DNA from: Escherichia phage P151
Sequence record: PP083182.1
DNA: 40,500 nt
Direction: 5' to 3' (one strand)
Shown here: piece after piece, positions 1,370 to 5,499 of the stretch
How the letters are laid out: each line of letters begins with the position of its first letter
Position numbering within the stretch: the first letter of the stretch is position 1
Made by a program: the position numbers and the translations under genes
Notes under the pieces: model-generated
The model's database searches: none
Told to the model about the DNA's origin: nothing
The model's input: only the letters and a program-made list of their open reading frames with translations

Positions 1370-3484
1370 ATGTTACTATCCGACATCGAAGCAAACGGGT
1401 TGCTGCACAACGTTAGTCAATTTCACTGTGCGGTGACTTACGACTACACAACTGACCAGTACATCCGTTATCGACCTGATGACTTTGGGGCATATATTGA
1501 TGCTCTCGAAGCTGAGGTTGCTCGCGGTGGTCTCATTGTGTTTCACAACGGGCACAAGTATGACGTTCCGGTTATCGAGAAGCTGGCAAAGCTGATTCTT
1601 AATCGTGACGTTAAGTTCCCGAAAGAGAACGTATTGGACACCTTGGTGATGTCCCGACTGATTTACTCTAACATCAAAGACACCGATGCTGGTCTGCTCC
1701 GTGCTGGCAAGCTACCGGGTAGTCGCTTTGGGTCTCACGCTCTGGAAGCATGGGGCTACCGCTTAGGCGAAATGAAGGGTGAGTACAAGGACGACTTTAA
1801 GAAGTCACTGGAAGAGTCTGGTGATGAATACGAAGACGGGATGGAGTGGCTGTTCTTCAACGAAGACATGATGGAATATAACGTTCAAGACGTTGTAGTC
1901 ACCAAGGCACTCTTTGAGAAACTGTGTAGTAACACTTTCTATTTCCCTAACGAGACACCCGCTGGAAGCACAGAAGCAGACCGTTTCTGGAATGGTAGCA
2001 TTGAGGCTGTCAAACTGGAACATGATGCTGCATGGTTGTTAGCTAAGATGGAACGTAACGGTTTTCCTATTGACATCAAGTCCTTAGAGAACCTCTACGC
2101 TGAACTGGCTGGTCGCCGTGGTGAACTGCTGGTAGAACTAACCAACACTTTCGGCTCATGGTATCAGGCCAAGGGTGGCGTTGAAGCATTCCGTCATCCG
2201 AGAACTGGTAAGCCTCTCACTAAGTACCCTCGTGTGAAGTACCCGAAACAGGGTGGCATCTTTAAGAAGCCTAAGAACAAGAAGCAACGTGAAGGCTTAG
2301 AACCGTGTGAGTTGGATACCCGCGATTACGTTGAGGGTGCTCCGTATACTCCGGTTGAGCACGTTGTGTTTAACCCTGCGAGCCGAGACCACATCACTCG
2401 TGTGCTTACCAAAGCTGGCTGGGTGCCCGTTGAGTTCACTCCTAGTGGTGCGCCAAAGGTAGACGATGAGGTCTTAGAGCACGTTAAGGTAGACGACCCT
2501 GATGCACAACGTTGCATTGAGTTAATTAAAGAATACCTTATGATTCAGAAGCGTATCGGTCAGGTTGCTGAAGGTGATAACGGCTGGCTCCGAATGATTG
2601 GAGAGGATGGTCGTATTCACGGTAGCGTTAACCCGAACGGTGCGGTAACTGGACGCGCAACCCATAGTTTCCCTAACGTGGCACAGGTGCCTTCAATCCG
2701 TGCTGCTTATGGTGAACCTTGCCGTGCTGCTTTCGGTGCCGAGCACAACATGAAAGACGGTAAGCCAGACCCTTGGATTCAAGTTGGTGTGGATGCGTCC
2801 GGCCTTGAGCTACGCTGCTTGGGCCACTTCATGTATCGTTATGATGAGGGTGAGTACGTTGAGACCATCCTAACGGGTGACATTCATACGAAGAACCAAT
2901 TGGCTGCTGGTCTGCCGACTCGTGACAACGCTAAGACGTTTATCTATGGGTTCCTCTATGGTGCTGGTGCTGCGAAGATTGGACAGATTGTTGGTGGTAC
3001 TGCCGAAGATGGTAAGCGACTCATCAAGAACTTCCTTGAGCAAACTCCGGCTATCGCTGCGTTACGTGAAGCAATCACAGGGACACTCGTCAAGGACTCC
3101 AAGTGGGTTGGCGGTGAACAGAAAGTAACTTGGAAACGCCGTTGGGTTCGTGGCTTGGATGGTCGTAAAGTCCACGTCCGTAGTCCTCACGCTGCGTTGA
3201 ACACCTTGTTGCAGTCTGCTGGCGCTCTTATTTGTAAACTGTGGATTGTCAAGACAGAAGAGATGCTCCTTGAGATGGGCTACAAACATGGCTGGGATGG
3301 TGACTTCTGCCTCATGGGGTGGATACATGACGAGCAACAGCTTGCTTGCCGTACAGAAGAGATTGCCAAAGTTGTAATCGAAGTATCTCAACAGGCTATG
3401 CGCTGGGTAGGCGACCACTTTAACTTCCGGTGCCAATTAGATACTGAAGGAAAGATGGGTCCGAATTGGGCTGTATGTCACTAA
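1370..3484 (+). CDS. DNA polymerase gp5 (family A, 704 aa)
   Basis: Same length as T7 gp5; conserved blocks LIVFHNGHKYDVP (exonuclease), GSHALEAWGYRLGEMKGEYKDDFK, KTFIYGFLYGAG, HDE near C-terminus, ending GKMGPNWAVCH. Confidence 0.97.
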   Translation: MLLSDIEANGLLHNVSQFHCAVTYDYTTDQYIRYRPDDFGAYIDALEAEVARGGLIVFHNGHKYDVPVIEKLAKLILNRDVKFPKENVLDTLVMSRLIYSNIKDTDAGLLRAGKLPGSRFGSHALEAWGYRLGEMKGEYKDDFKKSLEESGDEYEDGMEWLFFNEDMMEYNVQDVVVTKALFEKLCSNTFYFPNETPAGSTEADRFWNGSIEAVKLEHDAAWLLAKMERNGFPIDIKSLENLYAELAGRRGELLVELTNTFGSWYQAKGGVEAFRHPRTGKPLTKYPRVKYPKQGGIFKKPKNKKQREGLEPCELDTRDYVEGAPYTPVEHVVFNPASRDHITRVLTKAGWVPVEFTPSGAPKVDDEVLEHVKVDDPDAQRCIELIKEYLMIQKRIGQVAEGDNGWLRMIGEDGRIHGSVNPNGAVTGRATHSFPNVAQVPSIRAAYGEPCRAAFGAEHNMKDGKPDPWIQVGVDASGLELRCLGHFMYRYDEGEYVETILTGDIHTKNQLAAGLPTRDNAKTFIYGFLYGAGAAKIGQIVGGTAEDGKRLIKNFLEQTPAIAALREAITGTLVKDSKWVGGEQKVTWKRRWVRGLDGRKVHVRSPHAALNTLLQSAGALICKLWIVKTEEMLLEMGYKHGWDGDFCLMGWIHDEQQLACRTEEIAKVVIEVSQQAMRWVGDHFNFRCQLDTEGKMGPNWAVCH

Positions 3485-3503: not shown

Positions 3504-3797
3504 ATGGCTATTACTAAACGTTTTAAAGTATCATTCGAAATGACCGTAAAGGTTGACTCTGAGACTGAAGATATGCTGAAAGAACGTATCTTGGATTTGG
3601 CTCGTAGCATTCGTGATGGTGAGTCCGTGAGTGCACAGGACAAAGAGTTACTCGTGCAGGCTCTTACTCATGGTGCCGATGGTGTTGTTGCCTTTGCTGT
3701 TAAGCAGGGAGTTCGTAATGAAATCCGTGAGATGGGCATTGAGCACCACGGAGAGGGCATTAAGTTTGCACCAGCTACTATTCGTGAGGTGAAGTAA
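3504..3797 (+). CDS. gp5.5-like protein (97 aa)
   Basis: N-terminal M-A-(I/M)-TK-(R/K)-FKVSF and C-terminal ATxREV resemble T7 gp5.5; located directly after gene 5. Confidence 0.7.
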   Translation: MAITKRFKVSFEMTVKVDSETEDMLKERILDLARSIRDGESVSAQDKELLVQALTHGADGVVAFAVKQGVRNEIREMGIEHHGEGIKFAPATIREVK

Positions 3798-4006
3798 TGG
3801 GTGATTATCTACGTGTACTGGCGGCTATCAAAAGCTGCCCTAAGACCTTTCAGTCTAACTATGTGCGCAACAATGCGTCACTGGTGGCTGAGGCTGCGAG
3901 TCGTGGTCATATCTCTTGCCTATCAGTCGATGGGCGTAATGCTGGCGCTTGGGAAGTAACAGGCGAAGGCGTCCGTTTCCTGGCGCTGATGGGAGGTTGT
4001 GTATGA
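3797..4006 (+). CDS. gp5.7-like protein (69 aa)
   Basis: LxAIKSCPKTFQSNYVRNNASLVAEAASRGHISCLS closely resembles T7 gp5.7; start overlaps the 5.5 stop. Confidence 0.8.
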   Translation: MGDYLRVLAAIKSCPKTFQSNYVRNNASLVAEAASRGHISCLSVDGRNAGAWEVTGEGVRFLALMGGCV

Positions 4007-4185
4007 GCATATCTAAAAGTGACACTGTAACTATGCCTCGTGAAGCATGGAACGATGTTAACGCATATATTGAGTTCCTTGAGGGTCGCCTAGCGAAGCT
4101 GAATGCTCTCGAGGCCCACGGTGTAGACAATTGGTGTGGATATGATGATGCCATAACTGAACTCTTTACGGAGGATGACGTATGA
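4003..4185 (+). CDS. gp5.9-like protein (60 aa), possible RecBCD inhibitor homolog
   Basis: ATGA overlap with the 5.7 stop; acidic small protein at the T7 gene 5.9 position. Confidence 0.5.
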   Translation: MSISKSDTVTMPREAWNDVNAYIEFLEGRLAKLNALEAHGVDNWCGYDDAITELFTEDDV

Positions 4186-4475
4186 GTAACCCATTAACTG
4201 CAACAGAAATCCTACTGTCTAACTTACTGGCTGATGTACCTTGGTGCGATGAGTTGCCAGATGAGTTCGAACTGTTCGTGTCTGGAGATTGGACTGACGA
4301 AGGGAAGACCGAAGGTAAACTTGATGTTGTCAAACACTTACCTTCTGGTCGTTTCTTTGAGTGCTTCTTCACTCGACATGGCGACCACTGGCAAGGCTAT
4401 GAGACTTCCTTTGATGGATGTAGTGAAGTAGAACCTTATGAAGCCACTGTAATCTTATGGAAGGAGGTGAAGTAA
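4182..4475 (+). CDS. Hypothetical protein (97 aa), no T7 counterpart
   Basis: ORF with GGAGG RBS; start overlaps the 5.9 stop and stop overlaps the gene 6 start (translational coupling); acidic, Cys/His-containing. Confidence 0.6.
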   Translation: MSNPLTATEILLSNLLADVPWCDELPDEFELFVSGDWTDEGKTEGKLDVVKHLPSGRFFECFFTRHGDHWQGYETSFDGCSEVEPYEATVILWKEVK

Positions 4476-5389
4476 TGAGTGCAATTACACTGAATGAGTT
4501 CTATGAGATTCGCCAAGGTAAATCCGATAAGGGTGTTCTCGTAATGGATGGTGACTGGCTGGTATTCCAAGCGATGGCAGCAAGTGAAGTCGAGACCGAT
4601 TGGGGTGACGATGTGTGGACCTTAGAGTGTGACCACGGGAAAGCGTGGAACATTCTGGTAGACTCCATCAAGTCCTATGCCGGTCGCAAGAAGGCTTGGC
4701 GTGATGCGCCTATCGTATTGGCCTTCACTGACTCTGTGAACTGGCGTAAGGAACTTGTGGACCCAACCTACAAGGAGAACCGTAAGGCATCCCGTAAGCC
4801 TGTAGGCTACCATGCGTTCATCGAGCGTGTTCAAGCCTTTGAGGACTGGACGTCTATCCTTGAGCCTCGCTTAGAGGGTGATGACGTAATGGGAATCATT
4901 GGGTCTGGTGCTAAACATTTTGGTTTCAATAAGGCTGTGCTGGTCTCCTGTGATAAGGACTTTAAGACTATCCCTGATTGTGACTTCTTGTGGTGTACTA
5001 CTGGTAACATCTTGACTCAAGACCAGACGACTGCCGACTACTGGCACATCTATCAGACCATTAAAGGTGACTTGACAGATGGCTATGGTGGCATTCCGGG
5101 CTGGGGCGAGACTACCGCTGAGTGGCTGGAGAACCCATATGCCTTTGAACAGGTTGAGAAAACTTTCAAGTCTGGTGCTCGTAAGGGACAGACAGTTCTC
5201 GAATGGAAAAAGGTTGACATTGGTGAGCGAACCCTATGGGAAGCCATTGTGACACTTGGTGCGAAAGCTGGGATGACCGAAGAGGAAATCATTAAGCAAG
5301 GCCAGATGGCTCGCATCCTACGTTTCGAAGAGTATAACTTTATCGACAAGGAGATTTACCTATGGTCGCCGGAACAGTTGCGTTCATGA
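4475..5389 (+). CDS. 5'-3' exonuclease gp6
   Basis: GVLVMDGDWLVFQAM, PIVLAFTDSVNWRKELVDPTYK, EGDDVMG, DKDFKTIPDCDFLWCTTGNILTQ, KQGQMARILRFEEYNFIDKEIYLW match T7 gp6; ATG at 4475 after AGGAGG. Confidence 0.95.
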   Translation: MSAITLNEFYEIRQGKSDKGVLVMDGDWLVFQAMAASEVETDWGDDVWTLECDHGKAWNILVDSIKSYAGRKKAWRDAPIVLAFTDSVNWRKELVDPTYKENRKASRKPVGYHAFIERVQAFEDWTSILEPRLEGDDVMGIIGSGAKHFGFNKAVLVSCDKDFKTIPDCDFLWCTTGNILTQDQTTADYWHIYQTIKGDLTDGYGGIPGWGETTAEWLENPYAFEQVEKTFKSGARKGQTVLEWKKVDIGERTLWEAIVTLGAKAGMTEEEIIKQGQMARILRFEEYNFIDKEIYLWSPEQLRS

Positions 5390-5476: not shown

Positions 5477-5499
5477 TAATACGACTCACTATTGAGAGG
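5477..5499 (+). promoter_or_regulatory. Phage RNAP promoter phi6.5 (TAATACGACTCACTATTGAGAGG)
   Basis: Exact match to T7 consensus from -17 to -2; precedes gene 6.5. Confidence 0.85.

Follow-up and report, generated by a model that had tools for sequence, protein, structure and literature searches.

Bacteriophage T7 blocks H-NS with gp5.5, the sigma-S RNA polymerase with gp5.7 and RecBCD with gp5.9, and it has no gene between 5.9 and 6. In T4-like phages the interval between nrdC and pin, a Lon inhibitor, harbours gene 49.2, whose T4 product is the 12.6-kDa protein of the pin-nrdC intergenic region known as Y04K. This interval is polymorphic in the T-even phages, T4 and T2 carrying Y04K where T6 carries a 56-aa protein. 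Defence by OLD proteins meets both places. Gp5.9 is reported to trigger P2 OLD, and another phage is reported to encode an OLD inhibitor close to its trigger (bioRxiv 10.64898/2026.07.10.737580). At the T-even position, a protein named 'Gp49.2' abolishes P2 OLD defence, the protein tested coming from T6 (PMC13096335).

Here we follow up a reading frame of Escherichia phage P151, in a window (the whole stretch of DNA analysed) of 40,500 nucleotides (PP083182.1). The frame lies between gene 5.9 and the exonuclease gene 6 and, as judged from profile comparisons, it codes for a member of the Y04K family. The features that matter are the following, numbered from the first letter of the window.

1370-3484: DNA polymerase, a T7-like neighbour
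3504-3797: gp5.5 (PF11247)
3797-4006, plus strand: gene 5.7 (phrog_1334, E 1e-37), the conserved left border of the slot discussed below
4003-4185, plus strand: gene 5.9, RecBCD inhibitor family, 60 aa (PF25708, E 1.7e-18), the other cassette of the slot
4170-4174, plus strand: GGAGG, ribosome-binding site of the target gene as read from the sequence, 7 nt 5' of its ATG
4182-4185, plus strand: ATGA, overlap of the target start with the gene 5.9 stop, as read
4182-4475, plus strand: target gene, coding for a 97-aa acidic protein assigned to PF26835 (Phage_T4_Y04K, T4 gp49.2 family)
4463-4467, plus strand: GGAGG, ribosome-binding site of gene 6 as read, within the 3' end of the target frame
4473-4477, plus strand: TAATG, overlap of the target stop with the gene 6 start, as read
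4475-5389, plus strand: gene 6, 5'-3' exonuclease (phrog_107, E 2.4e-77 for the protein starting at 4475), the conserved right border of the slot
5477-5499, plus strand: T7-type phage promoter downstream of gene 6, the first promoter match of the region

The target frame reads from ATG at 4182 to TAA at 4473-4475, and an exact-sequence look-up retrieves its product at NCBI as WVW36862.1, a 'hypothetical protein'. The initial annotation had described an acidic frame of 97 residues with a GGAGG ribosome-binding site, start and stop codons overlapping those of both neighbours, and a gene 5.9 next to it, at a place where T7 has no gene. This description stands in full: there are 97 codons, the net charge is -13 with a pI of 4.3, GGAGG lies 7 nt ahead of the ATG, the two codon overlaps are present, the adjacent frame matches the gp5.9 model, and the T7 arrangement fits the loci where gp5.9 abuts gene 6. 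Two starts around the target deserve a word: that of gp5.9 is the ATG at 4003, as against a TTG at 3949 in the list of open reading frames, and that of gene 6 is the in-frame ATG at 4475, with its GGAGG 7 nt upstream.

Between positions 1 and 5476 no T7-type promoter was found at three mismatches or fewer, and the segment 3300-5800 displays no prominent sigma-70 promoter or terminator signal. Because the target gene is upstream of the first T7-type match of the region, which occupies the position of phi6.5 in T7, it belongs to the class II unit together with genes 5 to 6, in line with the expression class that had been proposed for it. Eight such matches occur on the plus strand of the window (at 5477, 8408, 9383, 26128, 27179, 33293, 34291 and 36583) where none is expected by chance, and most of them carry ACTCACTATTGGGAGA, as against ...TATAGGGAGA in T7.

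That the frame is a real gene is borne out by its relatives. The initial annotation had named a non-coding substitution pattern as the finding that would overturn it, and the comparison with ten homologues speaks the other way, synonymous sites being saturated (pS 0.74-0.90) with pN at 0.20-0.39: the frame evolves under purifying selection. Matches to it are present in 105 phage records, with hosts that include Salmonella, Yersinia, Klebsiella, Erwinia and Dickeya (tblastn), and a profile search of 1.84 billion representatives retrieved 188 clusters at 50% identity (E <= 0.001), nearly all of 85-115 aa. We are thus dealing with a genuine, conserved, translationally coupled phage gene.

The family to which this gene belongs could be named by indirect routes. 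The target itself had no match in Pfam at E <= 1, in a copy searched without the PF26835 model, and searches of NCBIfam, PADLOC and the PDB by sequence also returned zero matches, so that none of the four sequence searches indicates a catalytic feature. In PHROGs it falls into phrog_18166 (E 1e-40; function not assigned), with a weaker match to phrog_2294, labelled 'ribonucleotide reductase'. Precomputed Pfam matches, however, place all 14 homologues in PF26835, one of them being 97% identical to the target, and likewise a cluster-mate of the target that lies in the same context, between 5.7 and 6. The profile search of the kind that had been suggested (PSI-BLAST or HHpred) points to the same family, T4 gp49.2 aligning with the profile of 66 diverse members at a probability of 98.4% (E 6e-15; hhalign), and T7-like Vibrio phages are reached from T4 gp49.2 by tblastn at E 7e-5. 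By these comparisons the target is a member of PF26835, an uncharacterised family: it is a single domain in the range of about 90-110 aa and bears the core motifs. A literature search on PF26835, Y04K, the PHROG identifiers, 'nucleotide reductase subunit C' and accessory hotspots at gp5.7/gp5.9 retrieved nothing. The word 'extra', which had been used for the frame, therefore holds in one sense, as the gene is accessory in T7-like phages, and fails in another, since a member of PF26835 is no orphan.

Names are a treacherous guide in this family, and two of them suggest functions that have to be weighed. The labels 'ribonucleotide reductase' or 'nucleotide reductase subunit C' stand on phrog_2294, on the RefSeq entry of T4 49.2 (NC_000866 47506-47826; L010:5507-5827, minus strand), on VP4 orf22, and on UniRef and other records, the oldest that we found being the VP4 entry DQ029335 (orf22). 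Were these labels right, the target would be a reductase subunit or a redoxin. Among the 66 members there is no Pfam match to any family of reductases, thioredoxins or glutaredoxins, and the family alignment has neither a conserved cysteine pair nor a CxxC, so that we reject this identity and give it practically no chance. Because the T-even gene sits near nrdC, the label was probably positional to begin with and then propagated. As a result, a reductase label that the tests made here do not support is attached to a family shared by T4, T2 and hundreds of further phages, be they T7-like, T4-like or of other kinds.

The second name is 'Gp49.2' itself. As T4 gene 49.2 is homologous to the target and 'Gp49.2' has been shown to block P2 OLD (PMC13096335), one might take the target for an OLD inhibitor. 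This is a collision of names. The protein tested is T6 EcT6_00080 (AP018814 44192-44386; L011:2193-2387, minus strand), of 56 aa, whose residues M13, T15 and W32 match the numbering of the published mutants (PMC13096335). It differs from T4 gp49.2 in length and sequence, a comparison drawn without a direct pairwise alignment. Being a different protein, it does not lend its function to the target; we reject an anti-OLD function deduced from the name, and hold it to be very improbable. The risk remains that the Y04K family inherits this function in databases through the shared gene name. EcT6_00080 may be a gp5.9-like protein, given a sub-threshold match to PF25708 (E 5e-4, 20.3 bits, residues 13-31) that T4 gp49.2 does not show. 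The matching stretch includes M13 and T15, important according to the paper, and the protein aligns with a gp5.9 variant of locus L097 (33% over 39 aa). Two further OLD inhibitors were set aside as relatives of the target from their published descriptions: Oad1 is ICP1 Gp205, the tagged form of which runs at about 22 kDa, and HK446 Oad2 is related to P22 EaE. Records of the size of ICP1 or of lambdoid phages are absent among the tblastn matches listed for the target.

The position of the gene is telling in another way. A census of 80 IMG/VR loci (L024-L103), picked solely by homology to gp5.7 and regardless of what followed, gives the content of the interval between 5.7 and 6: it is empty in 20 loci, holds gp5.9 in 28, Y04K in seven, and other genes in the remaining 25. 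The latter include an HNH (homing) endonuclease, a small beta-barrel family also seen in phage JSS2, a family of 129-149 aa and one of 58-60 aa; outside the census, the corresponding place in phage PHB19 has a 42-aa CxxC protein. This interval is a hypervariable cassette slot with at least seven gene families, and the distribution across T7-like genomes, which had been proposed as a check, makes the Y04K gene a non-essential accessory gene. In all 18 other distinct T7-like loci examined (BP12A, fPS-53, Pisces, phi1_146013, Bas105, VP4, IMG/VR contigs and one ENA contig among them), Y04K lies directly between 5.7 and 6 and gp5.9 is absent; no gp5.9 homologue was found anywhere in bases 1-23196 of BP12A or in the whole genome of Pisces. 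Among the loci examined, the P151 window is alone in combining gp5.9 with Y04K, an arrangement that no phage record matched. The gp5.9 DNA of the window is 93% identical to that of PHB19 and its Y04K gene 97.6% identical to that of BP12A, so that on these identities the window looks like a mosaic. As for phenotypes, the paper on the BASEL collection reports none that would set Y04K-bearing Bas105 apart from other T7-like phages.

The borders of the cassettes have a signature of their own. The motif GGAGG-N6-7-(T/A)ATGAG(C/T) is present at 9/9 slot junctions compared in five phages, an empty slot included (window 3990-4010, 4168-4188 and 4461-4481; L001, L006, L024, L025), and the cassette proteins at these junctions all start with Met-Ser. 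We infer that such a repeated motif would supply translational coupling together with microhomology for the exchange of cassettes. Cassette proteins that are not related to one another share the C-terminal tail ...ATVPAMSKAKAVSDE, or a close variant of it, in Klebsiella-type (Przondovirus-like) phages (L063, L049, L050, L094; P0009, P0011, P0012, P0014), and this tail seems to be part of the conserved junction ahead of gene 6, not of the cassette. Again within the slot, a divergent gp5.9 variant (L031) resembles, by its N-terminal part, the C-terminal part of the 129-149-aa family (L050, L089, L094), with 40-48% identity over 25-40 aa (E 1e-3 to 6e-6), and the two may share a module. The beta-barrel frame of the JSS2 slot (L006:1889-2098) for its part weakly resembles '49.3' of T6 (DUF7205, L011:2366-2581), with 50% identity over 20 aa and an E value of 0.005, the database searched being tiny; up to three gene families may thus be common to the nrdC-pin interval of T-even phages and the 5.7-to-6 slot.

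Beyond the T7-like phages, a motif-based scan, built on a subset of 10 sequences as the alignment of 66 was too diverse, detected 87 Y04K loci in viral contigs, as against two in 185,579 bacterial species, each represented by a single genome: the family is nearly restricted to phages. In 49 non-redundant diverse loci its commonest neighbour is a FEN-type 5'-3' exonuclease, which comes as the next gene in 7 loci and no more than three genes away in 13; in most cases the stop and start codons overlap. DNA polymerase A, a gp2.5-type SSB, thymidylate synthase and dNMP kinase come next, and because of this company the Y04K gene can be said to travel with replication modules. One neighbour in these loci has an Acb2/Tad1 hairpin domain. 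A 518-aa protein encoded in an IMG/VR contig (L153:4956-6512) unites, in a single frame, a Y04K domain and a complete DUF2800 PD-(D/E)XK nuclease. We did not retain this fusion as a Rosetta-stone clue: it is a singleton absent from the database, where the best 120 of 3166 DUF2800 matches, about 375-440 aa long, are unfused without exception, and as a singleton it may simply reflect a lost stop codon.

The structure of the protein is predicted by a model. AlphaFold2, fed with 15 homologues, yields with confidence a single domain (pLDDT 89.9, pTM 0.74) in which one helix (residues 7-18) would pack on a four-stranded antiparallel sheet (29-34, 44-52, 57-68 and 72-83). Foldseek found no match to this model below E 0.1 in the PDB, and its good matches in BFVD are only family members, from Vibrio, Serratia, Bacillus, Mycobacterium, Pseudomonas and Aeromonas phages. 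The best-conserved positions are G35, W37, K42, Y43, H52, G56, R65, G67, S68, Y69, Y73, E82, V83 and W93, largely in two hairpins, GDW..GKY and R.GSY.SDY.Y; G35, W37, K42, R65, G67 and V83 are each kept in at least 56 of the 66 members, and the target has all six. Acidity is a trait of the whole family (net charge -10.7 +/- 2.5, range -17 to -5 in the 66 members), and since many small early phage proteins are acidic, charge is weak evidence of function. The initial annotation had remarked on cysteines and histidines; the remark carries no functional weight, as C22, C61 and C80 are all variable and H52 is the one conserved histidine out of three. A metal site was rejected on the same ground, the cysteine positions varying across the family. 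Some other members (VP4 orf22 at L009:2809-3219, P0015, L079 / L016) are longer at the N terminus by about 25-40 aa, a stretch that shows the pattern CxxC...CxC (MSHYDCKxCG...) and is a possible zinc ribbon; the target is without this extension.

What, then, might such a protein do? The reading that we find most likely, while holding it tentatively, is that of an accessory class II protein without catalysis, which binds a host protein and blocks it; both the binding and the inhibitory effect are inferred. The gene is transcribed with the class II genes of DNA metabolism, its translation is coupled to that of genes 5.9 and 6, and its product, a strongly acidic, single-domain protein of about 11 kDa, would bind one host protein one-to-one. 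The surface thus blocked would probably be one that normally holds nucleic acid, and the block would serve host takeover or counter-defence, as with the slot-mates. Because the gene sits in a hypervariable accessory slot, a role in host interaction or anti-defence, already proposed in the initial annotation, is probable. The company of the family agrees with host interference: gp5.9 occupies the same slot in 28 of the 80 loci, the T-even gene 49.2 adjoins pin, an OLD inhibitor of T6 holds the T-even position, and an Acb2/Tad1-domain gene is among the neighbours. Against this, a variable slot means dispensability and is no indication of function, all the more as this one also houses a homing endonuclease. 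Further, the best-conserved positions are aromatic or basic (W37, K42, Y43, H52, R65, Y69, Y73, W93) and are kept across phages of very different hosts, Bacillus and Mycobacterium included, a pattern more readily expected of a structural core, or of binding to a universal small ligand, than of a protein interface that evolves fast.

Several other functions have to be balanced against this one. The target might be a functional stand-in for gp5.9, inhibiting RecBCD or silencing one of its guard systems, OLD or certain retrons for example. Y04K takes the place of gp5.9 in 18 of 18 other T7-like loci that carry the family, BP12A (over bases 1-23196) and Pisces have no gp5.9 elsewhere, and in T6 the Y04K position of T4 and T2 goes to a 56-aa protein that weakly matches PF25708. 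That gp5.9 is reported to trigger P2 OLD, with the reported precedent of an inhibitor encoded near its trigger (bioRxiv 10.64898/2026.07.10.737580), goes in the same direction. The exclusion of the two genes in the census is, however, statistically weak (0/7 with gp5.9 against 2.5 expected, P ~0.05, relatedness ignored), and most slots hold one cassette, so that it may reflect space and not function. The predicted fold is mainly beta-sheet, while gp5.9 is helical. T2 and T4 have the family and are nevertheless restricted by P2 OLD (PMC13096335), and ICP3, which also carries a Y04K member, is still inhibited by Vc OLD. A stand-in for gp5.9 is therefore unlikely. The broader proposal, that Y04K is an unrecognised counter-defence family which two phage lineages without relation to each other (T7-like phages, in the 5.7-to-6 slot, and T-even phages, in the nrdC-pin interval) use in place of gp5.9-like proteins, and which is directed at the RecBCD axis or its guards (OLD, retrons, Gabija), appears doubtful as well; were it true, P151, with both genes, would have two stacked layers. 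Given the published trigger role of gp5.9 in P2 OLD and the precedent of an inhibitor beside its trigger, the pairing seen in P151 is worth testing. Phages with Y04K usually have no gp5.9, which speaks against a pair of trigger and antidote as a general rule.

The conserved residues lead to a different thought, that of a sponge which, like Tad1, Tad2, Acb2 or Lockin, would sequester a small nucleotide used as an immune signal. Aromatic and basic residues that are near-invariant in a protein variable elsewhere gather in two hairpin loops, the family resembles sponge families in extending over phages whose hosts are distant, and one neighbour gene has an Acb2/Tad1 hairpin domain. The conserved residues could simply make up the core of the protein, and anionic ligands are no obvious fit for so negative a surface. 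The model has no structural match to known sponges, the best match to Lockin reaching TM 0.33 (probability 0.47, E 0.26; Foldseek), and Pfam sponge domains are absent from the target and the 66 members; we consider a sponge quite improbable. The target might also assist the phage exonuclease, or more generally the machinery of replication and recombination, since a FEN-type exonuclease is its commonest neighbour (7/49 and 13/49, as above), the L153 protein joins it to a nuclease, and endonuclease VII is encoded a few genes downstream in T4-like phages. T7 and most T7-like phages, however, have gp6 without the target gene, and unrelated genes fill the same position, which makes adjacency a property of the slot. 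Moreover, the fusion is a single case that may come from a lost stop codon, and in T4-like phages RNase H is not adjacent to the gene. Such an accessory factor strikes us as rather improbable. Binding and blocking of a host protein thus stays our preferred reading.

In itself, the target gene is one more member of a catalogued, uncharacterised family, and more use can be made of the slot and of the corrections to annotation. Between genes 5.7 and 6 lies a compact cassette slot, with which the T-even nrdC-pin interval shares Y04K and, on weak evidence, two more families; as a compact slot with many families, it is a defined place to look for genes of host interference. Being the only genome seen with both genes, P151 is a natural construct for asking whether gp5.9 and Y04K are redundant or complementary.

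Set beside the known systems nearest to it, the target shows partial likenesses to each. With T7 gp5.9 (PF25708), a DNA mimic that inhibits RecBCD, it has in common the slot, class II expression, the coupling motif, small size and strong acidity, and the two usually replace each other. There is no sequence relationship between them (the target has no match to the gp5.9 model, and in the window the local gp5.9 HMM matches 4003-4179 only), and gp5.9 is helical where the target is predicted to have a helix and a four-stranded sheet. To T4 gp49.2 it is homologous over the whole core, with the motifs GDW..GKY, KH.P.G, R.GSY.SDY.Y and EVEP common to both, and each is an acidic, phage-encoded protein of about 100 aa; identity is only about 20-30%, and the T4 gene belongs to another phage family and another genomic neighbourhood. 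T6 Gp49.2 (EcT6_00080) holds in T6 the position of the T4 homologue of the target, but differs by its 56 aa, its sequence and its sub-threshold match to the gp5.9 model. Finally, the predicted topology, a helix across a curved antiparallel sheet, resembles that of small alpha+beta inhibitors of the cystatin or NTF2-like type, as in the anti-adaptor IraD and an NTF2-like anti-Cas9 (PDB 7jta), both of them small non-catalytic binders.
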